From: Acutalibacteraceae bacterium
GTDB taxonomy: Bacteria; Bacillota; Clostridia; Oscillospirales; Acutalibacteraceae
NCBI GenBank assembly: GCA_045660705.1
Contig: JAZREH010000070.1
Coordinates: 1-36,800, forward strand
DNA length: 36,800 nucleotides
Direction of reading: 5' to 3'
Numbering within the stretch: position 1 is the stretch's first letter; each line of letters opens with the position of its first letter. Positions 10,694 to 36,800 of this stretch are shown here, piece after piece. A program made the translations under genes and the position numbers. Under the pieces are notes generated by a model. The model worked only from the letters and a program-made list of their open reading frames with translations, was not told the origin of the DNA and did no database searches.

Positions 10694-10723
10694 ATTATAT
10701 CATAAACCCGCTTGTTTTAGCAA
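10694..10723 (-). promoter_or_regulatory. promoter of the GH36 gene
   Basis: On the minus strand: TTGCTA (10723..10718), 18-nt spacer, TGaTATAAT with TATAAT at 10699..10694 (extended -10). It sits ~40 nt upstream of the ATG and directly downstream of the terminator at 10776..10803. Confidence 0.6.
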
Positions 10724-10775
10724 CCCCAAAAGAAAAAATTGTATAATTTTTAAAACTTTACCCAACTTTTTTAGC

Positions 10776-10803
10776 AAAAAAACCGCCTTTTCGGGCGGTT
10801 TTT
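10776..10803 (-). terminator. intrinsic (bidirectional-type) terminator ending the GH43-Doc/GH35 transcription unit
   Basis: AAAAAAACCGCC (10776..10787) / GGCGGTTTTT (10794..10803) with loop TTTTCG. Read on the minus strand the hairpin is followed by a T7 run. Confidence 0.8.
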
Positions 10804-10858
10804 AATTTAAATTTAATTTTTTTCAAGCATTTTAATGTAAAAGCCTTCGCTGTCACCG

Positions 10859-11026
10859 TCAGCGGCGCACTGCATAATCAGGTAGCAAATACCTGTCGGG
10901 CACTATCATCACATCGCGGCGCGAGTCACTAAGCAGCGTTGCAACAACAGGCGCACAAATATGCTTTAAAATGTCCTTTTGGTCGCCGTTTAATCGGTTT
11001 TTAAGAATTTTAAGGTAAGAATGCAT
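10859..11026 (-). CDS. small hypothetical ORF (55 aa), possibly frameshifted
   Basis: ATG at 11026..11024, 22 nt after the GH35 stop. Translation is MHSYLKILKNRLNGDQKDILKHICAPVVATLLSDSRRDVMIVPDRYLLPDYAVRR. A +1 frame continues with AADGDSEGFYIKMLEKN, ending ~20 nt before the terminator. I recognise no family. Confidence 0.25.
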   Translation of the reverse strand: MHSYLKILKNRLNGDQKDILKHICAPVVATLLSDSRRDVMIVPDRYLLPDYAVRR

Positions 11027-11047
11027 AATTAAATTCTTCGCTCTTAA

Positions 11048-13141: not shown

Positions 13142-13152
13142 AAAAACCACCC

Positions 13153-14022
13153 TTATTTAAGTATGTTAAAATAATGTTCCAAAAATGAATCTCTATCAGC
13201 CGATACAGCAACCCTGCAACGCGATTCTGCGGTGGGGTCGCCCTCACGAAGCACCGTAAATCCCCTTGCAGGACCCTCTCCAAGAATTACCTGCGGAATA
13301 CCGTTTACATATTTGCATATGCTGTCGTCAAGCGCAACCGCACCCGCAAGCGGGTCGTGGAAGATAACCTGATTACGCCATGCATCAAGCAGGTCATATA
13401 CAGGCAGAAGATTCTTCTTTTTAGTGCAACGCTCTTTCATTTCCTCGTGAGGAATAGACACCGTAAGGGTAACATCAAGCGGCACAACCGTAAGCCTTTT
13501 ATAACGCGCCCTGAAAACCGCCTCGGCGGCTTCGGGATCGCATTTTATATTCCATTCATCGTGACATTTTGTACGGAAATCGCCGCCCATTATAACCACT
13601 TCATCAAGCAGTTCAGCATCATCGGGATACTGCGCAAAAAGCAGTGCAATATTGGTAAGCGGTCCAATACAAAGCAGGGTAATCTCATTTGGATTTGCAT
13701 TTATTTTCTGATGCAAAAACTCGACCGCCGAGATATCGGCAAAGTCCTCGCTGTACTTCCACTTGCCGATTTTTTCGCTCTGTCCGGCAAGTTGCTGTGG
13801 TGAACTTGCCATACACAGCGGCTTTTCATTACCGACACAAATCGGTATATCCTTGCCGGCCTGTGTGCATAAAACGCTTGCAATCTTGGCGCGCTCGTAC
13901 GGCTTGCCCGTAACGGTGGTTATGCCAAGCAGGTCACACTCATCATTAGAAAGCAGATAGGACAGGCAGAGTGCATCGTCGATATCATAGCCGATATCGG
14001 TATCAAGCAATACTTTTTTCAT
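13153..14022 (-). CDS. inosine-uridine-preferring nucleoside hydrolase family protein (cytoplasmic)
   Basis: 289-aa ORF. The N-terminal aspartate cluster VLLDTDIGYDIDDA (DxDxxxDD) and CIGPLTNIA are typical of the IUNH family. Its ATG overlaps the stop of the upstream GH43 gene (TGATG). Confidence 0.85.
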   Translation of the reverse strand: MKKVLLDTDIGYDIDDALCLSYLLSNDECDLLGITTVTGKPYERAKIASVLCTQAGKDIPICVGNEKPLCMASSPQQLAGQSEKIGKWKYSEDFADISAVEFLHQKINANPNEITLLCIGPLTNIALLFAQYPDDAELLDEVVIMGGDFRTKCHDEWNIKCDPEAAEAVFRARYKRLTVVPLDVTLTVSIPHEEMKERCTKKKNLLPVYDLLDAWRNQVIFHDPLAGAVALDDSICKYVNGIPQVILGEGPARGFTVLREGDPTAESRCRVAVSADRDSFLEHYFNILK

Positions 14023-18352: not shown

Positions 18353-18390
18353 AAAAACCCCCGTCCCCCTCCGGGGAGGGAGGCGGGGGC
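18353..18390 (-). terminator. GC-rich intrinsic terminator ending the long upstream operon
   Basis: On the minus strand: GCCCCCGCCTCCCTCCCCGGAGGGGGACGGGGG followed by TTTTT (18357..18353). It starts ~38 nt after the stop at 18428. Confidence 0.75.
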
Positions 18391-23500: not shown

Positions 23501-25140
23501 TCTTTGATATCGGTTGCAGGGGTAATAACGATTGTTGGTTGTGCGCTTTGAAGTTTACGGTAACCGACCGAATCAATCTGAAGCGTACCGCCTATGTTTG
23601 TAGCAGTCAGTTTAATCTTACCTGAAGCGGGCGCCTTAACCTTTATCTGCGCTACCGCAAAATCGTTTGACGAAACATCAAGCGAAATACTGTCATTCTT
23701 TTCAGCCTCTGCTTTAAGTTCGCCCTCGCTGACACCGTCTGCCTTATAGCGTACAAAAACAATGTATTCCTTGCCCGCATCAAGTGTAAGTTCGGGGATA
23801 GTATTACCTGCACCGAGTGTCACCGCCTCAGCGTACTCAACCTTAAAGCCGTCAACCGAAAGCCAACCGTTTTGGTCACTGTTATACGAAAGACCAACAT
23901 TCAGCGTACCGTTTGTCACATTTACCGCGGTTGAGAAATATGTCCACTTATCAATGGGGGCATTCTCGGTGCCGTTTTCGATAACGGTATTTACATCATT
24001 TGCAAAAAGTTTTGTTGTGGCAGAGCCGCCCGAACTCTTAAAGTAGCCGCTGACGATATACATACCGTTTTTCACACTCTTATGGGTGGAGGATACGGTA
24101 TATTCGCTGCCAGTACCTGTAAGTTTAAGTTCGTTACTGCCGATAAATCCGCCTGCCTCAACCGCCGCGTTTACATTTGCGGTGGAATCAATCTTGTTAT
24201 TATCGACATAACCCTGTATTGAAGAACCTTCCTTTGCAATCGAAAGTCCGTTTATATAGAGTGTGGCCGACGGATTTGAAAGCCACGACTTAACCCAGAT
24301 AACACCCGAAAGTCCCGTTGTAAAGGTGAGTTTCTTTACAATCCAGTTGCCCGTAGAATCGGCAATCGAAACGCCTGGGTTTGCAACCTTTTCGCCGTTA
24401 TTTTCACTGAAAGTGGGTTGGTCGTTATTATATGTGAAAACATTGAAAGTACCGTTGAAACCTGTGTTTGAAACAGGAATATACATCGTATATGTGGTAA
24501 GGGGCTCAAGCACATAGCGACCTGTAAGCAGGAAATTTCCCGGAACGACAATAAGCGATTTCGGTGAAACATAGGTCTTTGCGGTGGTTTTACCCGCGTT
24601 TATGGCATTGATATCAAGTTCCGTTACCTTTTCGACGGTTATGTTATCAAGTTTAATCCAAGTACCCGCGGGACCTGTGTACCACATAACACCTACCCAG
24701 ACATAGCCGTCGGTAACATCCGCCATAACCTGAACGGTGGTCCATTCGGTATAGTTTGCGGCGTTCAAAAATCTTTCGCCTGTGTTTTGTCCGTTTACAT
24801 TGGCGCCGAGTTTTACACTTGACTGACCGCCCGAACTTTTAACATCGAAACTGATTGCATAAAGACCGTTTTCAAGTTCAATCTTGCGGGTCGCGCCGAA
24901 AGATTTGCCGTTAGGGTCGGCTTTTATCATAACGCTATCGTTTGAAACCGACCCAGGCTCATTCACACAGAAATTTGTAAAAAGCGAGTTGAAATAGTGC
25001 CTTTTTTCGGAAAAAGGCTCGGTTATATAACCGTCGTCTGCATCCGCTTTGACGATATTAGGGAGTTTAATTGCAAGCGGTGTGCAGATAATCAGCGCCG
25101 CCAAAAGAATGCTTAAAATTTTAACGGATGTTTTCTTCAT
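20506..25140 (-). CDS. secreted, C-terminally membrane-anchored non-catalytic protein built from ~10 CBM-like beta-sandwich modules
   Basis: 1544 aa with signal peptide MKKTSVKILSILLAALIICTPLAI. There are eight modules with the signature [EPK]-[ND]-G-x-Y-x-[VLI]-x-[AG]-x-x-[KR]-[SN]-[ST]-G-G (e.g. LENGTYTLTAYVKNTGGQSSAKL) plus two B-type modules (LEPLTTYTMY.., LDAGKEYIVFVRY..). The C-terminal TM helix ITWIAIAGGVLVVAGLTVLVIIFL (20539..20610) is followed by NKKKKGKNAL. No catalytic motif recognised. Confidence 0.8.
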   Translation of the reverse strand: MKKTSVKILSILLAALIICTPLAIKLPNIVKADADDGYITEPFSEKRHYFNSLFTNFCVNEPGSVSNDSVMIKADPNGKSFGATRKIELENGLYAISFDVKSSGGQSSVKLGANVNGQNTGERFLNAANYTEWTTVQVMADVTDGYVWVGVMWYTGPAGTWIKLDNITVEKVTELDINAINAGKTTAKTYVSPKSLIVVPGNFLLTGRYVLEPLTTYTMYIPVSNTGFNGTFNVFTYNNDQPTFSENNGEKVANPGVSIADSTGNWIVKKLTFTTGLSGVIWVKSWLSNPSATLYINGLSIAKEGSSIQGYVDNNKIDSTANVNAAVEAGGFIGSNELKLTGTGSEYTVSSTHKSVKNGMYIVSGYFKSSGGSATTKLFANDVNTVIENGTENAPIDKWTYFSTAVNVTNGTLNVGLSYNSDQNGWLSVDGFKVEYAEAVTLGAGNTIPELTLDAGKEYIVFVRYKADGVSEGELKAEAEKNDSISLDVSSNDFAVAQIKVKAPASGKIKLTATNIGGTLQIDSVGYRKLQSAQPTIVITPATDIKEGLQIAANKCGIYALEVTPLLNPPKKEKYEKIKTYNNFSMGFTGSDSSNKDRVTYEKGGKITDSRIVYTTDTASTITFYDLMNGTIENGTYTVSAYIRSTGGQAAVRFTTNTTPQQYTEVKGRNYNAEYTDWILIQQQDIVVDRNYLYFALTVSQDVGQKIEIDGFQVKKVGETDSQTPTVTYKETIDVPVDNFTKELPKCVYNEDDGKSRKLVITNSNSGAFGTWYAGGVNNLENGTYTLTAYVKNTGGQSSAKLIANNGTELARQLFHKINGWVKVEITNIKVSDNKLAIGVWYDSNNLDHKFELKNVQLHLVGEPKAEEKLPTEEYAEIITVNNATLRPTATSVYDYLTLNAGGAVTDSRMTITRDSDFSATLYRSLANLENGTYTVTAKIRSSGGHNHAYLKASSGNCIVTSNNLSGAYSDWKMVELRGVEVKNGKLYVSLSVNSVAGKTFEIDGIQIKRLGKGPAVTEKQYEWKKTLYPEMFTRDTKNVRGGTGRWAGETTILIDGNLPNGSWYFGAKGDLEDGTYTLRGYARSTGGQLAAKIIANNGKEENIQMQYNIPDWVLVELSDIKVTNGKLDIGFWYGGADAGQKLEMCGIELLREGTGDIGIDSEKYEYFYRINNSTWNLTYNKDYDNYNYYHLSAYGDDGNKLVIKGEPDRSVTFYKSFVEGTLEDGQYTVAAKVRSSGGQSNASIRINAGPEVKTQEVLDLSQPIKEWKEVYIKNITVKNGYLFFGIFYASTSAEQWLEVTDFEIRKVSTNGKQGGEIKFPYAAEFVVPKGKLIKQGAITLTSGGYNSATKLVVGVADKSVGGGTSFNMTDLPNGYYTISAMVKSSGGLSSGHIFVNTTSIAEKGINTQFKYSIDTWSRIETRDIYVSEGKILVGIWAGVEPGEWAYIDDIKLEYQGDMKIMDYKGGEGPKYDAPVEEVIELIKPSENRPKSPELDTLTVEKKGNIVSSPITWIAIAGGVLVVAGLTVLVIIFLNKKKKGKNAL
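20776..23418 (-). repeat. tandem array of six ~140-150-aa modules (protein-level repeat, period ~420-440 nt) arranged as (a-b)x3
   Basis: Approximate module borders are aa 575-716, 722-860, 870-1010, 1020-1152, 1160-1308 and 1315-1455 of the 1544-aa ORF. Odd modules share GG..TDSR..T...F/Y leaders and ..E(I/V)(D/T)(G/D)(F/I)(Q/E)(V/I)(K/R)(K/R) ends. Even modules share K(L/I)IANNG and (I/V)G(V/F/I)W(Y/A). Confidence 0.75.
24280..24513 (-). repeat. DNA-level paralogous segment (B module), copy 2; partner at 19562..19813
   Basis: It encodes VLEPLTTYTMYIPVSNTGFNGTFNVFTYNNDQPTFSENNGEKVANPGVSIADSTGNWIVKKLTFTTGLSGVIWVKSWLS. See copy 1. Confidence 0.8.
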
Positions 25141-25142
25141 AC

Positions 25143-27698
25143 TTATACTCCCTTTCTCTTTTTATTTATAAGTAATACCGCAAGTACACCGACCGCGATA
25201 ATCACCGCCGCGCCAAGTCCGATACCGACAAACGGAATAGCGTTTGAACCGCTGTTCCCTGCTACCGTTTCAAGTGTCATATCGGGAACCGAAACCGAAA
25301 CGGTTTTAAGGTCGCTTTCAAGCGGGGCGATATACAGATTATCAAACTCGGCAGAACCTGCCGCCGCGCGGAATCCCGCCGCACCCGACATATACGGGTT
25401 TGATGTATCGGTATAACTGAACAGTTCGGTGTCATCGACAAAGCAGGTTATGGTCGAACCGACACAGGTCACCTTAATATGGTATGTACCCATCTTTACA
25501 AGACCTTTGTTCAGTTTAAGAAGTGTCTTTTTCTCGGACTGGAAGTGCTTTTCAAGGAAAATTCCCTTGTTTGAAAAACCGATATAATATGCGTTATGCT
25601 CATACTGGTCGGTGGTTTTTTCGATATTGTCGAAGAACTGATTTGTGCGGACAATTATTCCGGCGGTTGAGCCGTCAAGGTAGGTCATATCCGCCTCAAT
25701 CGAATAGTCACCCCAAGAACTTTTACCGACAAGCACCTTACCGTAGTTTGAAAGTTTTTTAAGTCCCATTTTTCCGTCCTTAAACGATGGCGGGTTTTCA
25801 TAACTCTTGAAGAAAAATTTGCCTTCCTTATCGTAAAGACTGTCGCAACTGTTGGCAAGTTTAGTGGTTTCGGTGTAGTCATTTATATGCACCTGATACA
25901 CCTCGGCACCGCCCTTTTCAAGGTAAAGTTTTACGGTGTTTTTGCCCTTTTTCAGTGAAATATTTCTTACAGAATAGGTGTTATAGGCGTCCTCATTCTT
26001 TTTACTTTCGGGAATCTTTACGCCCGCCTTTATCACATTATCGGCGGTAACCGCAAGGGTTGTATCCTTTTCGACCTTGCCGAGTGTGATATCAAAACTG
26101 TATACGCCGTCTGCCTTTACATTTGCATCAAAGGTCATAAACTGACCCTTTTTAAAGGCAACCGCACTACCCGTTTTGCCGTAGGAAGCAGGTGTTACGG
26201 TGAGGTCTTTTACATTATTTGCGTGAACCGCATCGTTGTTACCCGGCACTACCTTTTCGGTATCGTAGTCGGCACTGCCCATAGCCTTGTCGGAAAATGC
26301 GGTGTAGCCAACCTTAATATCGGAATTTTCAGCGATATATCCGATTGCGCCGCCAACCGCCGGCATAGCGTGACGGCTCTTTTCGGTGCCGTCAAGATAA
26401 ATTATCGTGGTATCTTCGGTCTGCTGAACCTTTATCGCGTGGTTGGCGTTGTAGGCAAAACCGTCGTTAAGAGGACTGCTCTCACTCCACAAAACGGTGC
26501 CGTCTTTTATAAATTCGGTCTTAATTGATGCCGACTTCTGGTCAAGATATACCCTGCCGTAGTTCTTGTTATCGGTGTAAGCAAAGACCGCCGCCGCATA
26601 GCCAGAATTATCGGTGGTATAAAGATTCATTTCGGCAGAATAGACCTTTTCGGTCTTTTTCTTTGAAATAAGGGAAATTTTATCGCCCTTTTCAGCACTT
26701 ATAAAACCGTCGGCATATTCCCAACTCTGACCCGTTTCAAATTCAGAGGTATCATTCTTTTCAAACCAGACCGCGAAGTCGGGCATGTCGGGATCAGCAA
26801 CCTCGTGCGAGGACTGACCCTGTACATAAGGCTTTGTACCGTTAAATAGTATCTTGTCAAGGTCGATATGACGGTCAGCATTGGTTCCCGTAACCTTATA
26901 GGTATCGTGATAAATGATATAATAGGTATCAAGGTCGGGACCGACAAGTATACTGTTATGACCAAGTCCCTTTATTTCACCCTCGGTATTAAGGGTAAGC
27001 ACATTGTTTTCAGGCTCGGTAAATCCCTTTTGGAGGTCATCGGAAACGGCATATTCAACGCGGTAGTTGGGAAGTAAAACATTGTTACCCGTATATGTAA
27101 GATAGTATGTGCCGTTGCGCTTGAACATTGTCGGACCCTCGGTCCAAAGGTCGGCAACACTTACCTTGAAATAATCATTATTGCTTACGAATGTTGTGGG
27201 GCTGGTAAGGGTGGTATAGTTTACGCCGCCGCTTCCGCACCAGAGAAAGTAACGGGTGTTATCACCGTCGGTAAATACAGTGCCGTCGAACTGGCGGCCT
27301 GTATTTTCTGTGATAAGTTTAAACGGTCCTGTAGGTTTATCACTTTTATAAACATAGTGACCCTTACCAAACGGGGCACCGTACATATAGAAAGCACCGT
27401 CGAGGTAGTATACTTCGGGGGCGTACATTGCATAATGCACTTTTTTATCGAGTGATTCATCAAGAAGTTCGCCCTCGCTCTTCCAATTTACAAGGTCCTT
27501 CGATGACCAACTTTTAATATTGCCCTCCGACATATAAAGGTAGAAAATACCGTTGTACTTAAGAATGTACGGGTCGCCGCCCTCGAATATCTTTCCCTCG
27601 CTGTCTGCAAGCGGGTTTTGATATGCAGCTACACCAAGGGGTACTGCACACATAACAAGTACCATACAAAGAACAAGCGAAATCAGTCTTTTAATCAT
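25143..27698 (-). CDS. secreted GH43 glycoside hydrolase with LamG/CBM-like modules and a C-terminal membrane anchor
   Basis: I place the start at ATG 27698 (AAGAGGT 6 nt upstream, ATGA overlap with the upstream stop), not 27734. Signal peptide MIKRLISLVLCMVLVMCAVPLGVAA. The GH43 triad contexts GDPYILKY, QFDGTVF and WTEGPTMF are present. The LamG-like, CBM6/35-like (DGVYSFDITL) and DUF1080-like (WGDYSIEADMTY) order matches the dockerin paralogue. The protein ends in TM helix IPFVGIGLGAAVIIAVGVLAVLLI (25167..25238) + NKKRKGV. Confidence 0.85.
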   Translation of the reverse strand: MIKRLISLVLCMVLVMCAVPLGVAAYQNPLADSEGKIFEGGDPYILKYNGIFYLYMSEGNIKSWSSKDLVNWKSEGELLDESLDKKVHYAMYAPEVYYLDGAFYMYGAPFGKGHYVYKSDKPTGPFKLITENTGRQFDGTVFTDGDNTRYFLWCGSGGVNYTTLTSPTTFVSNNDYFKVSVADLWTEGPTMFKRNGTYYLTYTGNNVLLPNYRVEYAVSDDLQKGFTEPENNVLTLNTEGEIKGLGHNSILVGPDLDTYYIIYHDTYKVTGTNADRHIDLDKILFNGTKPYVQGQSSHEVADPDMPDFAVWFEKNDTSEFETGQSWEYADGFISAEKGDKISLISKKKTEKVYSAEMNLYTTDNSGYAAAVFAYTDNKNYGRVYLDQKSASIKTEFIKDGTVLWSESSPLNDGFAYNANHAIKVQQTEDTTIIYLDGTEKSRHAMPAVGGAIGYIAENSDIKVGYTAFSDKAMGSADYDTEKVVPGNNDAVHANNVKDLTVTPASYGKTGSAVAFKKGQFMTFDANVKADGVYSFDITLGKVEKDTTLAVTADNVIKAGVKIPESKKNEDAYNTYSVRNISLKKGKNTVKLYLEKGGAEVYQVHINDYTETTKLANSCDSLYDKEGKFFFKSYENPPSFKDGKMGLKKLSNYGKVLVGKSSWGDYSIEADMTYLDGSTAGIIVRTNQFFDNIEKTTDQYEHNAYYIGFSNKGIFLEKHFQSEKKTLLKLNKGLVKMGTYHIKVTCVGSTITCFVDDTELFSYTDTSNPYMSGAAGFRAAAGSAEFDNLYIAPLESDLKTVSVSVPDMTLETVAGNSGSNAIPFVGIGLGAAVIIAVGVLAVLLINKKRKGV

Positions 27699-28651
27699 TC
27701 TGTTACCTCTTTTCTTTCTATGATCGGTCCGCATACATTATTACGGTCACACACAAGTTTGCCATCTTCTATCAAAAGTTCAGCCAACTGAACATAAGAA
27801 CGGTGTTCCTTATAGGTAATATTATCGTTTTCTATTCTTCCGCTGTAACGGTCAAAGTTCAGTGTAAAGTAAACTATAAATGCGCGGTCGCCGCTTACAA
27901 ATATATCGGCATGGTGTCCGTTATTCTTGTCATACGCCCTTGTACCTGGGGTGTTTAAAATATGTGTTTCGTACTTCCAATCGGTGGCATCGTCCGAACT
28001 GTATACCGAAAGACCGTCCCAAGAATCGACAATCAGCCAATATTTTTCTTTCCAATAAAACACATTAGGACCCTCATTGGCGTAGTCGTGCATCGCATAA
28101 CCCTTTTCTTCCCATTTTATAAGGTCTGTACTGTCTGCATAATAACAGCCGCAACGATTATCGTTACAACGCTTATACCACATACGCCATCCGCCGTTAT
28201 AGGGTATGATTGCGGGATCAATAACACCGTCTTCCATATCAACCATAGTAACAAAATCCCAGTTCCACAAATCGCGCGATACATAATGTGCGGTGGTATA
28301 ATCCTTGCGCCACGTCTTTGAAACACCGCTTGAATAGGTTACAAACATGTGATACACATTGTCAGCCTTTATGATTTCGGGCGCCCAAAAGGTGTTAAGC
28401 CCCTCCTCAAAATTAAGCGATAGTTCACCTTTATAATTGAATGTCAAACCACCGTCACCTGAAACAGCGACACCAATCTGTGTGCCAAAATACCATTCGT
28501 TTTGTTCACACTCAAGGTCGCCGCGGCGTGCAGTATAAAACATCCACAATTCGTCAGTGACATCATTATATAACAGCATCGGGTCGGCAGGTGCGAAATG
28601 CACGGGGTCCTCGAAAAGCGGGGTATTTATTATATTTTTATTTTCTGTCAT
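27695..28651 (-). CDS. cytoplasmic five-bladed beta-propeller glycoside hydrolase, GH43-like
   Basis: No signal peptide. GH43-style motif contexts are present: APADPMLLY..WMFYT, FWAPEIIKADNVYHMFVTY, VIDPAIIPYNGGWRMWY and NEGPNVFYWKEKYWLIV. I prefer the start at ATG 28651 over the TTG at 28660 (better SD spacing). Confidence 0.6.
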   Translation of the reverse strand: MTENKNIINTPLFEDPVHFAPADPMLLYNDVTDELWMFYTARRGDLECEQNEWYFGTQIGVAVSGDGGLTFNYKGELSLNFEEGLNTFWAPEIIKADNVYHMFVTYSSGVSKTWRKDYTTAHYVSRDLWNWDFVTMVDMEDGVIDPAIIPYNGGWRMWYKRCNDNRCGCYYADSTDLIKWEEKGYAMHDYANEGPNVFYWKEKYWLIVDSWDGLSVYSSDDATDWKYETHILNTPGTRAYDKNNGHHADIFVSGDRAFIVYFTLNFDRYSGRIENDNITYKEHRSYVQLAELLIEDGKLVCDRNNVCGPIIERKEVTE

Positions 28652-28666
28652 TTTAATCAAACCTTT

Positions 28667-29659
28667 TTATCCGACAATGCCGGAATTTTCAAAATTCTGG
28701 ACCAGCTTTTTCTGAATTATAAAATAAAATATCAAAAGCGGTACCGCATACAAAAGTGCCGCCGCATGTTTAACGGCATCAAGAATAATATTGTCATCGC
28801 CCACAACACCAAGCAGTTTATTTGCAACATCGGAAATCATTTCGCGGTTTGCCCATTGGAAAAGACTGCCGATACGCTTGGCAAGGAAGGGACCGTCGGG
28901 ATAAAAATATCCCGTATAGTATGTATCACCGTAGTTCCACACAAACGAAAGGGTCAAAACCGTAATAATTATCGGCTTTGCATTGGGGAAAGCAATTCGG
29001 ATATAGGTCTTAAAATAACCGCAACCGTCGATGCGTGCCGCCTCCTCAAGAACGCTTGGGAATCCCTTAAACGACTGTCTGAACATAAAAGCAAATACAC
29101 TTTGCTTAACACCAAAGCCAAACAGATTTATAATCAGCAAAACCATTGGATTGTTTACAAGGTCGATGGTCTGACCTCCGTTTAAAAGCGGAATTATTCC
29201 AAAAAGGCTAAACTTTTTAAATGAAAGATACTGTGAAATAAGCGTTGCCTGCGGCGGAACAAGGATAACCAGCACTACAAAGAAGGTAAGCATCTTTGTG
29301 TACCAGAAATTATGCCGCGCAATGGCATAGCCAATCATTGCACTCATAAACATCTGTATCAGGGCAACAGCTGCGGCATACAGTATTGAAAATGCAACAT
29401 TCCTGACATTCCCGTACACCATATAGATAGCGACCCTGAAACTGCCCAAAGAAAACTTTTCGGGAATCCAGATTGAACCGCTTCCGCCAATCATTCCCAT
29501 ATCATTAAATACGGTGGGGAAAAGTTTAAGCACCGGATAAAGAATAATAAAACATATTCCAATAACAATCGAATAGAAAAGCAGGTTTCCTATCCCCTCA
29601 CGCCATATAGCACCCAAAGGTTTTTCGCGGCGGACTAACTTTTCAGGTTTTTTAAGCAT
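28667..29659 (-). CDS. carbohydrate ABC transporter permease (MalG/BPD_transp_1 type)
   Basis: 330 aa, polytopic, with EAA loop LEEAARIDGCGYFKTYIRIAFPNAKP. Overlaps the upstream permease gene by 8 nt. Confidence 0.85.
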   Translation of the reverse strand: MLKKPEKLVRREKPLGAIWREGIGNLLFYSIVIGICFIILYPVLKLFPTVFNDMGMIGGSGSIWIPEKFSLGSFRVAIYMVYGNVRNVAFSILYAAAVALIQMFMSAMIGYAIARHNFWYTKMLTFFVVLVILVPPQATLISQYLSFKKFSLFGIIPLLNGGQTIDLVNNPMVLLIINLFGFGVKQSVFAFMFRQSFKGFPSVLEEAARIDGCGYFKTYIRIAFPNAKPIIITVLTLSFVWNYGDTYYTGYFYPDGPFLAKRIGSLFQWANREMISDVANKLLGVVGDDNIILDAVKHAAALLYAVPLLIFYFIIQKKLVQNFENSGIVG

Positions 29660-30557
29660 TTGTTACCGCCACCACCTTTCTGAACACAAACAGCAGAATT
29701 CCCATATCAAGAAGTCCGTTTATCGTATATATAACCGACAGCGCCGAGCCTGCACCTATATTATTCTGGGTAAAGGCGAAATAGTATATCTCACCCGAAA
29801 GGGACGAGCCGACAAACAAATCGACGAAACTGTAAACCAATACGAAAATCATCATATTGCTTATCATCGGCAGGGTTATCTTCCAGAACACCTCATAACT
29901 GCCCGCACCCTCGATTTTAGCAACCTCGTAATGAGATTCACTTATTGACTGAAGACCCGCAAGGAAAAGAAGTATCTGCACACCGCAACTTGAAACAATA
30001 TTGAAAATATTGTCGTTAAGTTGTGCCATAAACTCAATAACCGATTCGGGCAACAACGAATTTTGAAGCAGAAATGCCATTATGCCATCATCACCCGTAA
30101 AGATAGGTTCTACCGAAGCATCGACAAAATTACCCTCAATAGACGATGACATCATAGTGCGCATAATATCAAGACCTAAAATTATCGGCAAGAAGAACAC
30201 CATACGGGCAAGCGCACGACCCTTGAATTTCTTGTTTATAAGAATCGCCGCAAAAAGACTGAAAATCATAAGAACGGGTGTGTTGGTGAAAATGCGTGCA
30301 TTTTCGGTGGCAAGCACCCTTAAAACTAATGAATTGTTTTTTGAGGTGAGTTTTGTAAAAAGGTCAACATAGTTGTTTATTCCGTTAAATACCATTGTCG
30401 ATTCACCCGTTGAACCGACTTGAAGGGTGTTAAAGGAATAGACAAAGGTGTAAAACAGCGGAACGGCAAAGAAAACCGCAAAGCCGATAAGCCACGGCAA
30501 GGACATTAAAAAAGCATTTCTGTGCAGTTTTTTCTCAAGTGTGCCGTACTTTTTCAC
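29652..30557 (-). CDS. carbohydrate ABC transporter permease (MalF type)
   Basis: 301 aa, polytopic, with EAA loop SESHYEVAKIEGAGSYEVFWKITLPMISN. GTG start with GGAGGA 6 nt upstream, 2 nt after the upstream stop. Confidence 0.85.
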   Translation of the reverse strand: MKKYGTLEKKLHRNAFLMSLPWLIGFAVFFAVPLFYTFVYSFNTLQVGSTGESTMVFNGINNYVDLFTKLTSKNNSLVLRVLATENARIFTNTPVLMIFSLFAAILINKKFKGRALARMVFFLPIILGLDIMRTMMSSSIEGNFVDASVEPIFTGDDGIMAFLLQNSLLPESVIEFMAQLNDNIFNIVSSCGVQILLFLAGLQSISESHYEVAKIEGAGSYEVFWKITLPMISNMMIFVLVYSFVDLFVGSSLSGEIYYFAFTQNNIGAGSALSVIYTINGLLDMGILLFVFRKVVAVTNA

Positions 30558-30559
30558 GC

Positions 30560-33160
30560 TTAATCCTCCTTTATTATCTTATAGCCCATCGCATCTACTG
30601 CAAACGAGCCTGTATCAACAGAATTATGATTATAGTTAACGATTACCGAAACGCCGTTTGCATAATCGGTTTTAAATACTCCGTCTGAAATAACGGTATG
30701 GTCGCTAATTTCTTTAGTACCAATCTGACCGAACGCCTCTTTATACGCATTATAAAGTTCTATCGCACCGTCTTTAAGGTCGTTATAGTAAACCGAGTAC
30801 AGATAGTCGATTCCGTATTCCATCATTGGCTGTATCGGTGTTGCCGAAAATGTATACATCGGCATGGCACCCGTTTCAAGTGCCTGAAGCAGATAATATG
30901 CCCTATCGTCCTTTGACATATTGACATTAAGGGTGGTATGCTCGCAAACGCCGTTCATAACAAGTTGTCTGAACGGAACCGAAAGACTGTATCCGCCGTA
31001 ACCCGAACTCTGCCTTGAAACACCGACAGCATAATCGGCATACATCATTCGGTCAGCATTAGGATTTTCGATTGCCACCGTCTTTTTGCCCGAGAGTTTT
31101 TTAAGGTTTTCCTTTAAAACCGTATTTGACGAAATCGGGTTAAGGTATCCGAAACCTGAATAATCGGCGTAGTATGTACTGCCCATATCGGGTAGGTAAA
31201 CGGCACCGAAATCATCGCTCTTTTTAAGGAACGAATCAATAATACCGCTAATCTGAGTGGGTTTTAAAAGCACCGATGACGAATAGTTTTTATCGGTACG
31301 AAGCGTGCCGTCCATATATCGGTTATCACTTAACTTAAATATATCGCCGCCCATATCACAAACAGCATTAAGGGTGGAATTAAAGACACCCGAAGTCTTG
31401 TAAACCCGCATAAACGAGGCTTCGACAAATATTTCGTTGCCCACTTTTGACTTGGAAACAAATTTTACAAGGTCCTTCTTCTTTCCTGCCGAAGCAACAG
31501 GCTTTACCTTGTTAAAAATACTATTGTTTCTGCCGCCGTTAAACACCCATCTATAGTTAAATACCATATCACCGTTTTGGGTCATTTCCCTGTAAATATC
31601 AGCGGCTTCGCTATAATCGGTAAGTGTTATTCCCTTGTCGTACTTGATGCCGAGTATCGTTTCCCTGACGTCAAGGGTTCCAAGCAGATTAACATACATC
31701 TTGGCGCGGTTATCAAACTTAAGTTTAGCACCGTCGGTCAGATATGTGCGGTAGGTCTTGGCAAATTCACTGTAATCTGCATTCTCACCGAACAGGAAAT
31801 ATCTTAATACTATGTCGTATTTATTTTTCTCTGTTTTAGAAAGGTATTTTGAAGACTTTTCGGCATAAGGACCAAGGATATTTACCGAAGCGTACTGTGA
31901 AATATCAAATGAACCGTACACCGAGTTATATCCCGAACCGCCGTCTTCTGCGTTTTTACCCTTAAGATTTAGATTGATATAGGCAAGTTCAGCACCCGAC
32001 TCAATTACGGTGAAATAACCGCTGTTTACCGAGTTTTCGGTGCTGTACATACCGAACACCGGCATCGTTATATTCTCGTTATATTCCGATGCAAAGGCAT
32101 AGTTCATATAAAAATTGTTATCGTATACAGGTCTTGCAAAGGCAGGTACTGATGCATTGTACGAATCAAGTGGTATCAGAAGTCCTGCACCGTCGGGAAC
32201 AAATATGTAACCTTGATTTGAGGTGCCCGCAAGACTGCCGAATGCGGGATACAGTTTTATATTCTGAACTGTAGCCCCGTCATCGCTTATCTGTGTTTCA
32301 TAGGTTGGCACCTTAACCACGAACTGCCCGTTATCAATATAGTTATCGACAACTACCGACAGGCGTACCGTACCTGTAAACTCAACATCTATACCAAATT
32401 CAGTATTGTCCTTGGCGACATCGTCCTGTGTGTATCCAAGCACCGACACCATCTGGACAATCATAGCCATAATACTCTTAATCGGGGTGCTTTTTGCGGT
32501 TGTTACATAGGACTTACCGTCCTCGCTCTTTTTATACAGTGTCTTAAGCACGCCGCGGTAACTGGAAAGTTGTTGCGGTGTTATCTTTGAGTCTTTTTCA
32601 AGTTTTTCAAGACCGTCGATAAAAAACTTCTCATACCTTTCAACAGATATCTGTTTGGGCATATAGTCGGTCAAAACATATGTATCGCCCGTACTGAATG
32701 TGAGTTCAAAACGGACACCGTTCTTTATCTTGTTGATTTTATAGTCCTGATGTGCAATACAGTAATCCTTTGCATTCCACTCGGTAACGGCATTTTCGCC
32801 GTTTAAAAAGGTAACGATGGCGGGCGAATAAGCATTGGAATTAAGTCCGCTTTCCTGTGCGATAGTATTAAACACCTTGCCCGTTGCGGTATCGACAATG
32901 CGTATGTTAAGCGACAGTGTATCAAGAAACATCTTTAGTCCGTCTTTTTCGGCTACAAGAAGTTCGGTTTCACCAATCTTTATGCTCTCGCCCGCCTTTT
33001 CAAAGGACACATCCACAGCAGGGAGTTTTTCGCTTTTTATAACCATACTGCAAACCGCAAAATCGCCGACAAGCACAATCGCCGCGACAAGAAAAACGCA
33101 AAGCGCCGCACGAAGCGGAGTTACAAATCTTAAAATTGAATGATTAAATCTTTTCTTCAT
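30560..33160 (-). CDS. large N-terminally membrane-anchored extracytoplasmic protein, DUF5696-like (function unknown)
   Basis: 866 aa. A basic N-terminus is followed by one TM helix (LRAALCVFLVAAIVLVGDFAVC) and a large soluble region with GH-like segments (GYIFVPDGAGLLIPL, MPVFGMY, VPFRQLVMNG). The DUF5696 assignment is from memory of similarly placed Firmicutes proteins and is not verified. Confidence 0.5.
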   Translation of the reverse strand: MKKRFNHSILRFVTPLRAALCVFLVAAIVLVGDFAVCSMVIKSEKLPAVDVSFEKAGESIKIGETELLVAEKDGLKMFLDTLSLNIRIVDTATGKVFNTIAQESGLNSNAYSPAIVTFLNGENAVTEWNAKDYCIAHQDYKINKIKNGVRFELTFSTGDTYVLTDYMPKQISVERYEKFFIDGLEKLEKDSKITPQQLSSYRGVLKTLYKKSEDGKSYVTTAKSTPIKSIMAMIVQMVSVLGYTQDDVAKDNTEFGIDVEFTGTVRLSVVVDNYIDNGQFVVKVPTYETQISDDGATVQNIKLYPAFGSLAGTSNQGYIFVPDGAGLLIPLDSYNASVPAFARPVYDNNFYMNYAFASEYNENITMPVFGMYSTENSVNSGYFTVIESGAELAYINLNLKGKNAEDGGSGYNSVYGSFDISQYASVNILGPYAEKSSKYLSKTEKNKYDIVLRYFLFGENADYSEFAKTYRTYLTDGAKLKFDNRAKMYVNLLGTLDVRETILGIKYDKGITLTDYSEAADIYREMTQNGDMVFNYRWVFNGGRNNSIFNKVKPVASAGKKKDLVKFVSKSKVGNEIFVEASFMRVYKTSGVFNSTLNAVCDMGGDIFKLSDNRYMDGTLRTDKNYSSSVLLKPTQISGIIDSFLKKSDDFGAVYLPDMGSTYYADYSGFGYLNPISSNTVLKENLKKLSGKKTVAIENPNADRMMYADYAVGVSRQSSGYGGYSLSVPFRQLVMNGVCEHTTLNVNMSKDDRAYYLLQALETGAMPMYTFSATPIQPMMEYGIDYLYSVYYNDLKDGAIELYNAYKEAFGQIGTKEISDHTVISDGVFKTDYANGVSVIVNYNHNSVDTGSFAVDAMGYKIIKED

Positions 33161-33167
33161 AACTACC

Positions 33168-33800
33168 TCACATACTGATGTGATTCAATACTTCGCGCAA
33201 AACGGTTGTAACAAAGGATAAAATCTTACCCATAACGCTGACATAAAACAGAAGTATAAATATCAAAATCAGCATAGCCAAAACTGTAGCAATCGCCATT
33301 CCTATTGTTTTTGACGCCGTATACTCATGAACAACGCAAAGTCCCACAAAGGTAATAAACACAAAGTAGACGGTACCAATCATAATAAATGCGTTTAAAA
33401 TGATTATCTCCTCACGGATGACAAAATTACTGATAAGCACACCCGCAAGGGTACAGAAAATTTTTGGCACCATAGCATACGCAAGGGTCATCAGAATATC
33501 AGATATCTTTCCGTTTCCGTCAAAAAGCGTCGTAACACTCCAGTTGCCGACGGCAAAGATTATATACGGAAAAATCGCCGCCGCAAAAACAAAAATGTTA
33601 TTTACATCTACCGTGTTCCAACTTCTTACCATAAAACCCGAATAGTTCATTCGGATAACCTCGGTAAAACCGCAAAGTGCGTATATCAGCGTTATCAGAA
33701 AATAGTTCTTACGCCGTATAAAACGCGCCTCATAAAATCCGTCAAACGGGTGCACAAGTATGTAGAAAATGAATTTTATATCGCTTACAAGACTTTTCAT
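33168..33800 (-). CDS. Yip1-family polytopic membrane protein
   Basis: 210 aa. The N-terminal HPFDGFYEARFIRRKN segment followed by ~5 TM helices is the usual bacterial Yip1-domain layout. Its ATG overlaps the upstream stop (ATGA). Confidence 0.65.
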   Translation of the reverse strand: MKSLVSDIKFIFYILVHPFDGFYEARFIRRKNYFLITLIYALCGFTEVIRMNYSGFMVRSWNTVDVNNIFVFAAAIFPYIIFAVGNWSVTTLFDGNGKISDILMTLAYAMVPKIFCTLAGVLISNFVIREEIIILNAFIMIGTVYFVFITFVGLCVVHEYTASKTIGMAIATVLAMLILIFILLFYVSVMGKILSFVTTVLREVLNHISM

Positions 33801-35245
33801 TTTTCTGCCACCTTTCGGGACGCTTTCTTAAAGTAACGCACCTCGCTGTAAACAATCAGCACTATGAACAGTACAACTGCAATAGCAAAGATATAAAAAT
33901 ACTTTTCAATAATTTGACCGCGGTAAAGGTTGTATGCTTTGCTATAACCTTCCTTGTTGTCAGACACCTTGAAGTATTCCATTGCCTCCTTATATTCGCC
34001 CTCCATAAGACGGCTATATCCGATACCCGTATAGGCGACATAATAGTTAGCGTTAAGCGTGAGTGCCTTTTCGTAATTTTCTGTTGCGGCACTCCACTGA
34101 CCGTTATAGTACTGTCTTTCGGCATCAAGCATAAGTTTGCCAAACTCTGTAGCAGTATAAACAAACGCCCTTGCGGGGTTGCGGTCAGTAATTATAAGGT
34201 CGGTACCGCTCCACTCAATACCGCTTGGAGTTTTAAGTTGACCGTAATTATCGCCAAGTGATGAAAAGACACTTAACAGATATCCGTTATAGTTATAAAT
34301 GAATACTCTGCCCGCCTTGCGGTCAAGTACGGCATAGGTGCCAAAGTCCGAAACCGCAACATCGACAAACTCACTTCCGCCGTCGGTGTTAACAAAATAC
34401 ATCTCATCATCGCCCGATATCTTCTGTCCGTCGGGCGTGCATATTATATTTTCACCCTTTGCATTAAAGCGAAAAACCTTATCCTCCGAGGTTGCATCGT
34501 GGGATACAGCATACACCAAATCGTCACCGTCAATGCTTATGTTACTGAAACCTGGGGCATAGGTTTTATACATCTGTGCAAGTTGTTCTTCGCTGGCAAA
34601 ATTTTTCCAGAAATAGTCGATCAGGTCATATTCGGGGGTATTAGCACCCATATAACGCGAAAACTTACCCTCTGTATCAAGTTCAACAAGACCCTCGGTA
34701 GTTCCGCTGACACTGAAATATATCTTACCCGACGATGAAACTGCAATCTTTGACGGCTCAAAGTCGGCATCGTCAGGATAATTTTCGGGTTGGTTAATTA
34801 CAAATGCGAGTTCAAGCGTCGAAAGATTCAAAACAACAATTCTTTCGGCACCTGTGTCGGCAATATATATAAGATTGTCACGGATAAACATACCCTCGGG
34901 CGCTTTAAGCGCAATAGCGTTGCCATCAGCCTCATAGACGGTGCTTACCGATGCCTTTAATGTAAAATCCTGTTTTGAAAAGACATACAGTGCTGCACCC
35001 TCGCTGTCAAGCAGATAGATATTATTACCTGACACCGCGACATCGCCTATACCGCCAAAACGCATACCGCCGTCTAATTTACTGTTATCAATTACAGCCT
35101 TTAAAATGTGTGACGGGGTGGACGCCACCATCTCGCCGTCGTGATATGTATAATTGTTTTCGGTGGTGTTCTGTGCAAAAGCGGTGATACCAAAAGTACA
35201 CGCACAAATCAGAACCGTACACAACAAAACAAATACCTTTTTCAC
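33797..35245 (-). CDS. secreted NHL-like beta-propeller + TPR protein with a C-terminal TM anchor
   Basis: I place the start at GTG 35245 (GGGAAG 7 nt upstream, 19 nt after the permease stop), not 35389. Signal peptide VKKVFVLLCTVLICACTFGITAFA. Repeated blades are visible (GDVAVSGNNIYLLDSEGAALYVF, PEGMFIRDNLIYIADTGAERIVVL, PSKIAVSSSGKIYF, VDVAVSDFGTYAVLDRKAGRVFIY, PSGIEWSGTDLIITDRNPARAFVY). TPR-like YYNGQWSAATENYEKALTLNANYYVAYTGIGYSRLMEGEYKEAMEYF follows, then a TM helix (33839..33901) + RYFKKASRKVAEK. Confidence 0.65.
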   Translation of the reverse strand: MKKVFVLLCTVLICACTFGITAFAQNTTENNYTYHDGEMVASTPSHILKAVIDNSKLDGGMRFGGIGDVAVSGNNIYLLDSEGAALYVFSKQDFTLKASVSTVYEADGNAIALKAPEGMFIRDNLIYIADTGAERIVVLNLSTLELAFVINQPENYPDDADFEPSKIAVSSSGKIYFSVSGTTEGLVELDTEGKFSRYMGANTPEYDLIDYFWKNFASEEQLAQMYKTYAPGFSNISIDGDDLVYAVSHDATSEDKVFRFNAKGENIICTPDGQKISGDDEMYFVNTDGGSEFVDVAVSDFGTYAVLDRKAGRVFIYNYNGYLLSVFSSLGDNYGQLKTPSGIEWSGTDLIITDRNPARAFVYTATEFGKLMLDAERQYYNGQWSAATENYEKALTLNANYYVAYTGIGYSRLMEGEYKEAMEYFKVSDNKEGYSKAYNLYRGQIIEKYFYIFAIAVVLFIVLIVYSEVRYFKKASRKVAEK

Positions 35246-35264
35246 ACAGTCACTTCCCTTAAAT

Positions 35265-36155
35265 TTATTCTTTGATGCCCGACGATGCCATCGTTTCGAT
35301 GACATTACTTTGTGAAAATACAAAAACGGTAATAGGAACAATAAGCATAAGAAGTGATACCGCAGATGCGACACCTGTACGCGCAACACCTGAATTTACT
35401 ATCTGTGCAATAGCAAAAGTAAGGGGTTTGCGGCTTTCGGTGTAGATATAACTTCCGCCCGTTTCGCCCCACAGTGTCTGGAACGAAAGGATAACAAGGG
35501 TTATCCACGCAGGCTTACTTACAGGCATTATTATCGACCAGTAAATCTTGAAATCGTGTGCACCGTCGATGGTAGCCGCCTCGATAAGCGCATCAGGAAT
35601 CTGCTCCATAAAACTCTTAAGCAAAAACACGCCAAGTGTTCCCGCAAAAACGGGCAACAGCACCGCAAAATATGTATCAAGCATATTGAGATACGACATA
35701 ATTATGTATACGGGTGTTGCAAGTATCGTGGCGTTAAACATAAGTGCATACTGTACCGTCTGGAATATACCCTTTGAGCCAGGGAAACGGAACTTTGCCA
35801 GCGGATATGCCGCCAAAGAACTGATTATAACGGTGCCGAATGTTCCGAACAGCGTGATAAACAAGGTATTGAAAATGTAGCGTGAAAGAGGTACCCACGA
35901 ATTTGAAATAATTACCTTTAAATCGACAAAGTTGTCGATAGTGGGATTCATAACAAACAGGCGCGGCGGAAAAAGGAATATTTCGTTAAGCGGTTTAAAC
36001 GCGTTATTGGCAATCAGAACAAGCGGCCAGACGCTGAAAACCGCAAACAATCCCAAAAACGCAAACAAGCAGATATCAACCGACAGGCTTCTGTTTTTCC
36101 GTTTGAATTTGAACCTTCTGTATCTTTGTACCAGATTTAATTTCTTCAAATCCAA
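35265..36155 (-). CDS. carbohydrate ABC transporter permease (MalG type)
   Basis: 296 aa with EAA loop PDALIEAATIDGAHDFKIYWSIIMPVSKP. TTG start 5 nt after GGAGG. Confidence 0.85.
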   Translation of the reverse strand: MDLKKLNLVQRYRRFKFKRKNRSLSVDICLFAFLGLFAVFSVWPLVLIANNAFKPLNEIFLFPPRLFVMNPTIDNFVDLKVIISNSWVPLSRYIFNTLFITLFGTFGTVIISSLAAYPLAKFRFPGSKGIFQTVQYALMFNATILATPVYIIMSYLNMLDTYFAVLLPVFAGTLGVFLLKSFMEQIPDALIEAATIDGAHDFKIYWSIIMPVSKPAWITLVILSFQTLWGETGGSYIYTESRKPLTFAIAQIVNSGVARTGVASAVSLLMLIVPITVFVFSQSNVIETMASSGIKE

Positions 36156-36190
36156 ATACGCCTCCTTTCAAGATTTTAACAAAACAATTA

Positions 36191-36800
36191 TTACAGTTTA
36201 CGCAACAGTTTCTGAACAATTAGGTTTGACATCATCATTATAAAGAAAAGTGTAACGGCGATTGCCGATGCGTAACCCATTTCAAGCCTTAATGTACCGT
36301 AGTCCTGCAGGTGGGTAAGTATTGTATGACCCGCATAATTGACCGACGGGAAACCTGCAAGTTGTGTCGATATTGTAGATACAGAAAATGACGACGATAT
36401 CTGCATTACCGCACCGAACAGCAACTGCCCTTTCATTGCGGGCAGGGTCAGATACCACAGTTCCTGCCAACGATTGCGTATACCGTCAACGCTCCCTGCC
36501 TCGTAAAGTGAACGGTCGACATTCTGGAAACCTGCGATAAACGACAGGAAACTGACACCAAGGCTCATCCACAACTGAACGACTATAAGAACGGGCAGAA
36601 CATAGTCAGCATTTTCAAACCACAAAATCGGCTCGTCAACAATGCCCATACTCAAAAGCAGTGCGTTTGCGTAACCGTACATATCCGAAGAAAATATAAG
36701 TTTCCAGATAAGGAACGCACTACCCGAGATTGACGGCGCATAAAACACAAGTGTTAAAAAGGCACGCATGCGCGGTTTAAAGTTATTTATTATCCACGCA
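36191..36800 (-). CDS. carbohydrate ABC transporter permease (MalF/LplB type), 5'-truncated by the window edge
   Basis: EAA loop DRSLYEAGSVDGIRNRWQELWYLTLPAMKG. The frame stays open upstream of the Met at 36769 (..AWIINNFKPRMRAFLTLVFYAP), so the gene starts beyond 36800. Confidence 0.8.
   Translation of the reverse strand, partial: AWIINNFKPRMRAFLTLVFYAPSISGSAFLIWKLIFSSDMYGYANALLLSMGIVDEPILWFENADYVLPVLIVVQLWMSLGVSFLSFIAGFQNVDRSLYEAGSVDGIRNRWQELWYLTLPAMKGQLLFGAVMQISSSFSVSTISTQLAGFPSVNYAGHTILTHLQDYGTLRLEMGYASAIAVTLFFIMMMSNLIVQKLLRKL

Follow-up and report, generated by a model that had tools for sequence, protein, structure and literature searches.

The stretch of DNA described here, 36,800 nucleotides (nt) of contig JAZREH010000070.1 from an Acutalibacteraceae bacterium, will be referred to in its full length as the window. 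At its high-coordinate end, seven genes on the minus strand encode two pairs of permeases of the ATP-binding cassette (ABC) type and, between the pairs, three membrane-associated proteins with NHL and TPR, Yip1, and DUF5696 domains (to be referred to as the trio). In the reading that we favor by a modest degree, the seven genes are the downstream part of a nine-gene cassette, which encodes a two-translocon glycan importer of the CUT1 class with a built-in accessory trio. The gene association is solid: the trio is a fixed part of a nine-gene cassette, widespread among Gram-positive bacteria, and is strictly co-conserved with both permease pairs. The seven genes are, in the order in which they are read:

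36191..36800, minus strand: pA1, MalF/UgpA-type CUT1 permease of the first pair (BPD_transp_1, E 2.8e-9; 388 bits with our own hidden Markov model, HMM)
35265..36155, minus strand: pA2, MalG/UgpE-type CUT1 permease of the first pair (BPD_transp_1; best NCBIfam similarity to UgpE and MalG)
33797..35245, minus strand: 482-residue protein with an NHL six-bladed β-propeller and TPR, predicted to be extracytoplasmic, with an N-terminal signal and a C-terminal transmembrane (TM) segment (Pfam, hydropathy)
33168..33800, minus strand: 210-residue Yip1-family membrane protein with five predicted TM segments (Pfam Yip1, hydropathy)
30560..33160, minus strand: 866-residue DUF5696 protein, predicted to be extracytoplasmic, with an N-terminal TM anchor and a modeled fold like those of glycoside hydrolase (GH) families GH129 and GH101 (PF18952, AlphaFold2, Foldseek)
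29652..30557, minus strand: pB1, MalF/UgpA-type CUT1 permease of the second pair (BPD_transp_1), beginning 2 nt past the DUF5696 stop
28667..29659, minus strand: pB2, MalG/UgpE-type CUT1 permease of the second pair (BPD_transp_1, E 1.2e-14), with an 8-nt overlap with pB1

The junctions from pA1 to pB2 are 35, 19, -4, 7, 2, and -8 nt, and the Yip1 start overlaps the stop codon of the NHL gene (ATGA). Family-wide, the median gaps at these junctions lie between -11 and +15 nt. Only the C-terminal 202 residues of pA1 are in the window, about 103 N-terminal codons being lost at its edge. All four permeases match PF00528 (BPD_transp_1) above the gathering score and have EAA motifs in their translations, while in NCBIfam they are only distantly UgpA/MalF-like and UgpE/MalG-like. 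The same NCBIfam scan gave no match for the Yip1 and DUF5696 proteins of the window.

The gene order, coordinates, and junctions given in an earlier reading of the DNA from its letters alone (the sequence-only reading) agree with the open reading frame (ORF) calls, and the EAA-loop strings that it quoted are found in the permease translations. Pfam returns the domains that it named (BPD_transp_1, NHL, TPR, Yip1, and DUF5696), the TPR matches being below threshold, and a hydropathy scan gives the same topology for the trio. The longest ORF for the NHL gene (33797-35389, minus strand) has a GTG start at 35389 and overlaps pA2 by 125 nt. The true start is the GTG at 35245 (482 residues), which matches the P0081 gene call and the homologs.

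Conservation of the cassette and its binding proteins

Two independent surveys of gene neighborhoods, one anchored on DUF5696 and the other on pA2, covered 160 loci in all, which were typed with HMMs built for nine components and run on six-frame ORFs. The DUF5696 survey gave at least 579 matches in species-representative genomes, and the pA2 survey gave 415 metagenome relatives; 80 loci were examined in each. Where the contigs are long enough, the common order in both surveys is SBP2-giant SBP-pA1-pA2-NHL/TPR-Yip1-DUF5696-pB1-pB2 (SBP, solute-binding protein). The order from the giant SBP to pB2 is complete in 65 of the 80 loci of the DUF5696 survey, with NHL and Yip1 encoded separately in 50 and fused in 15. 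The remainder comprises 12 loci cut by contig ends and three real variants. The pA2 survey has 58 complete loci among its 80, and contig ends account for the incomplete ones that were inspected.

The hosts include Lachnospiraceae, Cellulosilyticaceae, Tissierellaceae, Oscillospiraceae, many Paenibacillus, Cohnella, Bacillus/Lederbergia, Amphibacillus, and Treponema. Even three distant DUF5696 proteins (20-24% identity) lie in the same type of cassette. The DUF5696 family is large, with 6,597 clusters at 50% identity at E <= 1e-3 and 3,931 at E <= 1e-30. A chance arrangement is excluded, because the same order recurs in more than 120 independent loci from several bacterial orders. The view that the trio is not a set of unrelated insertions is thus borne out, as is the guess, made in the sequence-only reading, that Yip1 and DUF5696 genes are neighbors of sugar permeases elsewhere in the Firmicutes.

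Each permease pair is a predicted canonical heterodimer of a MalF-type and a MalG-type subunit. In five relatives, pA1 and pB1 share 23-27% identity over their full length and pA2 and pB2 share 21-32%, and the four permeases form four separate orthologous groups. The two pairs are therefore ancient paralogs.

Three loci show how the cassette can be divided. In Treponema (L058), DUF5696-pB1-pB2 stands alone among housekeeping genes. In L044, the NHL-Yip1 fusion, DUF5696, pB1, and pB2 are present without the SBP-pA block, and in L070 the two blocks are swapped, with a GH10 gene between them. From these variants, the tightest link is that of DUF5696 with pB1 and pB2, the NHL-Yip1 unit comes second, and the block of giant SBP, pA1, and pA2 is separable. 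The L058 arrangement represents the smallest version of the module and hints that the permease pair might be served by DUF5696 itself. It occupies 9815-14267 of a contig from a Treponema sp. metagenome-assembled genome, has no NHL, Yip1, SBP, or pA genes within 10 kb, and adjoins genes for a SPOR-domain protein, a GyrB-like protein, and an M16 peptidase.

Domain scans found no SBP or ABC ATPase gene elsewhere in the window. The lack of a binding protein is explained by the window edge, which cuts inside pA1, next to the SBP slot. The 202 residues of pA1 in the window align to residues 104-305 of the 305-residue ortholog in L086, with 84% identity. L086 is the closest relative with upstream DNA (81% identity for pA2 and 56% for the NHL protein). 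Directly upstream of pA1 it encodes a giant SBP of 971 residues and then a 681-residue lipoprotein (to be referred to as X672). The same two upstream genes are present in L002 and in Niameybacter massiliensis, whose DUF5696 proteins are 41% and 36% identical, respectively, to that of the window. From these relatives, two binding-protein genes almost certainly sit just past the window edge in the source organism. Exact-sequence look-ups with the pA2 and Yip1 proteins of the window matched no record.

More broadly, 124 of the 129 loci that could be tested carry a second SBP-type gene, either immediately upstream of the giant SBP or immediately downstream of pB2; the latter position is seen in 17 loci, and also in L166. 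The claim in the sequence-only reading that this is a transporter without a binding protein was therefore rejected as an artifact of the window edge. That reading had named ordinary SBPs just outside the window, together with a dispensable trio, as a point that would tell against it. Half of this holds: SBP genes are indeed found there in relatives, but one of the two proteins is far from ordinary.

The unusual one is the giant SBP of about 965 residues, which has an N-terminal anchor, modules like those of carbohydrate-binding module (CBM) family CBM35, a helical linker, and a family-1 sugar-binding domain. The last of these makes up the C-terminal 400 or so residues, with 5ysb (Lin1841) as the best match in the Protein Data Bank (PDB; E 5e-27), and an SBP_bac_1 match is present in all 28 members that were compared. 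The N-terminal 550 or so residues give repeated sub-threshold matches to CBM35, CBM6, and Golvesin_C, and match the CBM35 of cycloisomaltooligosaccharide glucanotransferase (E 1.7e-7) together with a coiled-coil-like segment. An N-terminal hydrophobic segment is found in 132 of 133 loci, a lipobox in only one of the 133.

X672, by comparison, has a lipobox in 51 of 63 members and C-terminal Ig-like domains. Its matches are to Pfam SBP_bac_8 in one member (E 1.7e-4) and, among PDB sequences, to an Ig-like protein and marginally to the SBP 4r2f (E 0.02). Its slot is filled by an ordinary SBP of 443-494 residues in loci of the Paenibacillus and Bacillus types, and X672 is read as an SBP partly because of its position and of these ordinary SBPs in the same slot.

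Proteins of the trio

The NHL assignment of the 482-residue protein rests on a Pfam match of 30 bits (cutoff 20), and hydropathy places its TM segments at residues 4-22 (the signal) and 449-467. The C-terminal TM segment is kept in 121 of 122 unfused NHL homologs. The 210-residue protein matches the Yip1 family (PF04893) over nearly the entire profile (positions 2-172 of 173; E 1.1e-11, 45.4 bits, cutoff 28.6), and five hydrophobic segments are seen in its sequence. The two proteins are closely associated in relatives, and in many lineages they form a single polypeptide. Where they are encoded separately the gap is -4 nt in the window and has a median of -4 nt over 130 loci. L034 encodes a single 685-residue protein with NHL, TPR, and Yip1 domains, many of the 226 NHL homologs are NHL-Yip1 fusions of about 704 residues, and the two are fused in all three of the loci with distant DUF5696 proteins.

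The predicted structure of one such fusion, P0099 (41% identical to the window NHL protein; pLDDT 86, pTM 0.74), has the propeller at residues 36-380, the TPR helices at 382-442, a long TM helix at 446-489, and the Yip1 helical bundle at 505-703. This modeled topology fits the separate NHL/TPR and Yip1 proteins of the window. In a fold search the P0099 propeller resembles TRIM-type NHL domains (TMt about 0.8). The Yip1-family protein YknW modulates the assembly of the YknXYZ ABC exporter (PMC4887032), so the precedent named in the sequence-only reading is real.

The 866-residue protein matches PF18952 (DUF5696) over essentially its full length (positions 2-612 of 612; E 9.3e-115, 384.9 bits, cutoff 25.6) and has a single N-terminal TM segment at residues 19-37. 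Its gene lies close to pB1 throughout the family, with a median gap of -4 nt over 145 loci. The AlphaFold2 model (pLDDT 87.9, pTM 0.85) has three parts, an N-terminal β-sandwich, a (β/α)8 TIM barrel, and a C-terminal β domain. A Foldseek search of the PDB gives a GH129-like 3,6-anhydro-D-galactosidase as the top match (5opq, 8rzk; E 7.5e-28), followed by the GH129 enzyme NagBb (5wzn; E 2.8e-22), with TMt of 0.67-0.71 for the GH129 matches. Further down are the GH101 endo-α-N-acetylgalactosaminidases (about 1e-12), and GH36, GH31, and GH97 are weaker.

The sequence comparisons point the same way. The DUF5696 family profile gives weak but collinear matches to GH129 chains, hhalign gives 75% probability for DUF5696 against a GH129 N-terminal fragment, and GH129 fragments in the databases carry precomputed PF18952 matches. 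The GH129/GH101 glycosidase fold of DUF5696 is established at the level of the predicted model. Given this fold, the capture or processing of oligosaccharides by the trio, as proposed in the sequence-only reading, is plausible.

The catalytic residues were mapped through P0058, a GH129 fragment that spans the catalytic region. By counting, Asp435 of NagBb, which is catalytic (PMC5698469), lies in its ACLDVF motif and Glu478 in PSSEEV. The hhalign alignment of P0058 to the DUF5696 profile covers only residues 522-606 (14% probability), and the mapping is therefore an extrapolation. By this extrapolated register the nucleophile (Asp435 in NagBb, Asp486 in ZGAL_3152) corresponds to Asp658 of the window protein and the NagBb acid/base Glu478 to Glu698, which stands at the expected spacing, and these two are candidate catalytic residues. 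NagBb and ZGAL_3152 have only the nucleophile in common, ZGAL_3152 using other acids, one of which comes from a second monomer (PMC5698469). Relocated catalytic residues thus have a precedent in the GH129-like fold, because the acids of these two enzymes differ. Among 82 DUF5696 members, Asp323 (in VPDGSGAL), Pro729, Phe730, Asn747, and Glu762 are invariant, and Glu387 and His821 are 99% conserved.

Many DUF5696 members are much longer than the window protein (1000-2270 residues), with the profile match spread over 1000-1500 residues or in two stretches. Large insertions or extra domains are therefore present in the same framework.

Neighboring genes

The tight spacing continues past pB2, with 6 nt to a GH43-like gene without a signal peptide, which is followed by a membrane-anchored GH43. 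The features downstream are:

27695..28660, minus strand: 321-residue GH43-like/BNR_2-like protein, no signal peptide (weak Pfam GH43 and BNR_2 matches; non-hydrophobic N-terminus)
25143..27734, minus strand: secreted GH43, TM-anchored at its C-terminus and with a LamG-like (3keto-disac_hyd) domain (Pfam GH43, E 2e-38; signal-like N-terminus, hydrophobic C-terminus)
18358..18377, minus strand: hairpin like an intrinsic terminator, with a 6-bp stem (5 GC pairs) followed by TTTTT (terminator scan)

The 321-residue gene also follows pB2 in L001 and L002, and its product is probably a cytoplasmic enzyme for the imported sugar. The secreted GH43 is likewise kept downstream of the cassette in both loci. 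The hairpin at 18377-18358 is the only strong minus-strand terminator downstream of the cassette and lies just past a gene for a 693-residue dockerin protein (low end 18428). It probably ends the operon, in which case the transcription unit takes in the downstream surface and dockerin enzymes. A promoter scan was uninformative (44 sites, compared with 40.6 ± 7 in shuffled sequence).

The first genes downstream of the cassette in diverse genomes (n = 92) encode GH30 (12), AraC (10), LacI (6), GH38 (4), GH35 (3), and GH8 (3), with GH2, GH5, and GH43 the next commonest. The partners in the window are GH43, GH35, and GH36 enzymes and dockerin proteins, and those in Niameybacter are GH20/GH84 enzymes and Leloir-pathway genes. 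As the flanking glycosidase families vary by genome, the cassette behaves as a portable uptake module joined to different glycan-degrading sets. The GH30 genes (Glyco_hydr_30_2, about 500 residues) directly follow pB2 in 12 Clostridia loci, most of them labeled Lachnospiraceae (L007, L011, L013, L015-L018, L023, L024, L026, L029, and L037), and the enzymes of different loci share about 50% identity. This points to a shared class of substrates in the GH30-bearing sub-clade.

Several other genes of the window are of interest. A gene of the inosine-uridine nucleoside hydrolase family (IU_nuc_hydro; 13153-14022, minus strand; E 2e-56) lies inside the glycan locus, just upstream of the GH35 gene and with one boundary base in common with a gene for a 1392-residue GH43-CBM35-dockerin protein (14022-18200). 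Its product, an odd partner for plant-glycan enzymes, may have a furanoside and not a nucleoside as its substrate. After the GH43 genes, in the same operon, a 1544-residue protein (20506-25140, minus strand) gives only faint Ig-like matches; L001 has a 1549-residue gene at the matching position. In the 693-residue protein (18428-20509, minus strand), the C-terminal dockerin is the only recognized domain. Both are large surface proteins.

The far end of the window encodes a 1070-residue DUF5107 and TPR protein (343-3555, minus strand) and a 651-residue Thioredox_DsbH (DUF255) protein (5612-7567, plus strand) with faint matches to six-hairpin glycosidases. Between them are an AraC regulator (3658-4449) and a GFO/IDH/MocA oxidoreductase (4440-5414). 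This region, 343-7567, may be the regulatory and sugar-oxidizing end of the same utilization locus.

Proposed function and comparison with known systems

ABC importers are the main route of uptake of plant and host glycans in Gram-positive bacteria of gut, rumen, and soil, and are usually viewed as a single SBP with two permeases. The cassette is a far larger fixed architecture, with two SBPs, four permeases, a glycosidase-fold membrane protein, and an NHL/TPR-Yip1 unit. All of its extracytoplasmic parts have predicted membrane anchors.

In the mechanism that we propose, the GH43/CBM enzymes that this operon encodes for the cell surface and the cellulosome would release oligosaccharides, which would be captured at the membrane by the CBM-bearing giant SBP and the second SBP. 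DUF5696, located over the pB translocon, would trim the oligosaccharides or pass them on. The NHL/TPR-Yip1 unit would serve as a scaffold in the membrane, or as an assembly factor, and join the enzyme, the receptors, and both translocons, much as YknW does for YknXYZ. A shared ATPase of the MsmX/MsmK type, encoded elsewhere, would drive both translocons, and the cytoplasmic GH43-like enzyme would complete the breakdown. The association of the genes is firm; what we infer is the mechanism of the trio.

A bolder version, which is possible but doubtful, has the cassette proteins in a single membrane supercomplex, a Gram-positive 'utilisome', in which NHL/TPR-Yip1 bridges the two translocons and DUF5696 docks on pB1/pB2 and feeds it together with, or instead of, an SBP. 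If this is true, cleavage or capture would be physically coupled to the import of large glycan fragments. Among type I ABC importers the system would then be the first with an enzyme-fold protein as its receptor, and a bacterial NHL-Yip1 protein would have its first assigned role.

Several observations weigh against the proposed importer with its accessory trio. Both SBP genes lie outside the window and are placed in the source organism from its relatives, and X672 is only weakly SBP-like (31% probability by hhalign against the binding domain of the giant SBP). There is no ABC ATPase in the window or next to the cassette, and an ATPase-like ORF is found anywhere in the flanks of only 7 of 86 loci. 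The fold search with the NHL-TPR-Yip1 model returned generic NHL propellers without a specific functional match, and nothing for the Yip1 part. Catalysis by DUF5696 is putative. Over the catalytic strands the register is an extrapolation outside any direct alignment, and by that register Asp658 is kept in only 72 of 82 members. The column of Glu698 is Glu or Asp in only 32 of 82; it is highly variable, and the equivalent of the GH129 acid/base residue is not conserved across the DUF5696 family. Asp323 and Glu387 in turn are not conserved in GH129. Contact among the cassette proteins is likewise hypothetical.

Some of these observations can be read differently. DUF5696 could be a non-catalytic pseudo-glycosidase, a membrane-tethered receptor on pB1/pB2 that replaces or aids an SBP and is itself tethered by NHL/TPR-Yip1. 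Its gene is always in the usual SBP slot directly upstream of pB1-pB2, with the -4 nt median gap given above, the Treponema block has no SBP nearby, and the nucleophile-equivalent Asp is absent in 10 of 82 members, with the acid/base-equivalent position not conserved. However, Asp658 is kept by most members, including the window protein, and relocated catalytic acids are documented in this fold (PMC5698469), so that one variable position does not equal lost activity. In addition, the second SBP found in 124 of 129 loci could serve pB1/pB2. To our knowledge, no type I ABC importer has a glycosidase-fold receptor, and we regard this explanation as rather unlikely. The probability is lower, and in our view slight, that the locus encodes two ordinary, independent SBP-dependent importers with the trio as a biogenesis or quality-control factor that makes no contact with the substrate. 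Two SBPs for two canonical permease pairs would suit such an arrangement, as would the lack of an enzyme-like match for the NHL propeller in the fold search and the fact that YknW, the only characterized bacterial Yip1 protein, modulates assembly and not substrate binding. An extracytoplasmic glycosidase-fold protein of about 850 residues is improbable as a pure assembly factor, however, and its polar residues, with Asp323, Asn747, and Glu762 invariant and Glu387 and His821 at 99%, point to a conserved active site or ligand site. Ordinary CUT1 importers, of which there are thousands, assemble without such factors as far as we know.

It is very improbable that the system recycles, remodels, or senses the cell's own envelope glycopolymers rather than taking up nutrients. 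The Treponema block, which stands beside the SPOR-domain protein and housekeeping genes and not beside carbohydrate-active enzymes (CAZymes), fits this idea, as does the membrane tethering of all parts. But nearly all other loci lie amid secreted and cytoplasmic glycoside hydrolases and sugar regulators whose families vary by genome, a pattern of diet or plant glycan utilization, and EAA-loop permeases with family-1 SBPs are importers. Finally, a chance or recent insertion of the trio between two unrelated transporter operons has nothing in its favor beyond the odd look of a single window. It is refuted, with a negligible probability left to it, by the same order in more than 120 loci of Lachnospirales, Oscillospirales, Paenibacillaceae, Bacillaceae, and Spirochaetes at 20-90% protein identity.

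Full-text literature searches for DUF5696 or PF18952 found no papers, and those for Yip1 with ABC or glycan terms found none that is relevant. While the component domains and the transporter type are known, neither the fixed architecture nor the part played by the trio seems to have been described before. The cassette gives a genomic context and a testable role to orphan families (DUF5696, bacterial Yip1, and NHL/TPR membrane proteins), and it is a ready marker for annotating glycan-uptake loci.

The transporter part of the cassette resembles the CUT1 importers (TC 3.A.1.1; MalEFGK2, MsmEFGK). Both have MalF-type and MalG-type permeases with EAA loops, and the giant SBP seen in relatives has the family-1 solute-binding domain. 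The locus encodes no ATPase, as in CUT1 systems that share MsmX/MsmK, and an ATPase outside the locus is common among the CUT1 systems of Firmicutes. In contrast to these importers, the cassette combines two SBPs with two permease heterodimers in a single fixed operon, one of the SBPs is about 965 residues long with CBM35-like modules and a helical linker, and NHL/TPR, Yip1, and DUF5696 lie between the permease pairs.

DUF5696 shares a three-domain fold and weak collinear sequence similarity with GH129 (the α-N-acetylgalactosaminidase NagBb, and ZGAL_3152) and GH101, and most members have an Asp near the nucleophile position in the extrapolated register. It differs from them in its N-terminal membrane anchor and in always being encoded inside an ABC transporter operon. 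Compared to GH129, its acid/base position is variable, and it has acids of its own, the invariant Asp323 and the 99% conserved Glu387.

In YknWXYZ of Bacillus, as in the cassette, a Yip1-family membrane protein is encoded with an ABC transporter, and YknW is needed for its assembly (PMC4887032). However, YknYZ, a MacB-type exporter that has a membrane-fusion protein, acts on a peptide toxin, whereas the partners in the cassette are type I importer permeases. Domain scans found no MacB/FtsX or membrane-fusion protein gene by the window cassette, where the neighbors are BPD_transp_1 permeases. The cassette Yip1 protein is also coupled or fused to an extracytoplasmic NHL/TPR protein, which YknW is not.

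The polysaccharide utilization loci of Gram-positive bacteria and the Sus-like 'utilisome' of Bacteroidetes provide the functional comparison. The cassette has no SusC/D, its accessory proteins are unrelated to surface glycan-binding proteins (SGBPs), and a supercomplex is here only hypothetical. As in those systems, however, surface glycan-binding modules, glycosidase-like proteins, a transporter, and a regulator are encoded together with variable CAZymes. The cassette points to the possibility that Firmicutes, like Bacteroidetes with their Sus-like systems, join extracellular processing and import in a single assembly.

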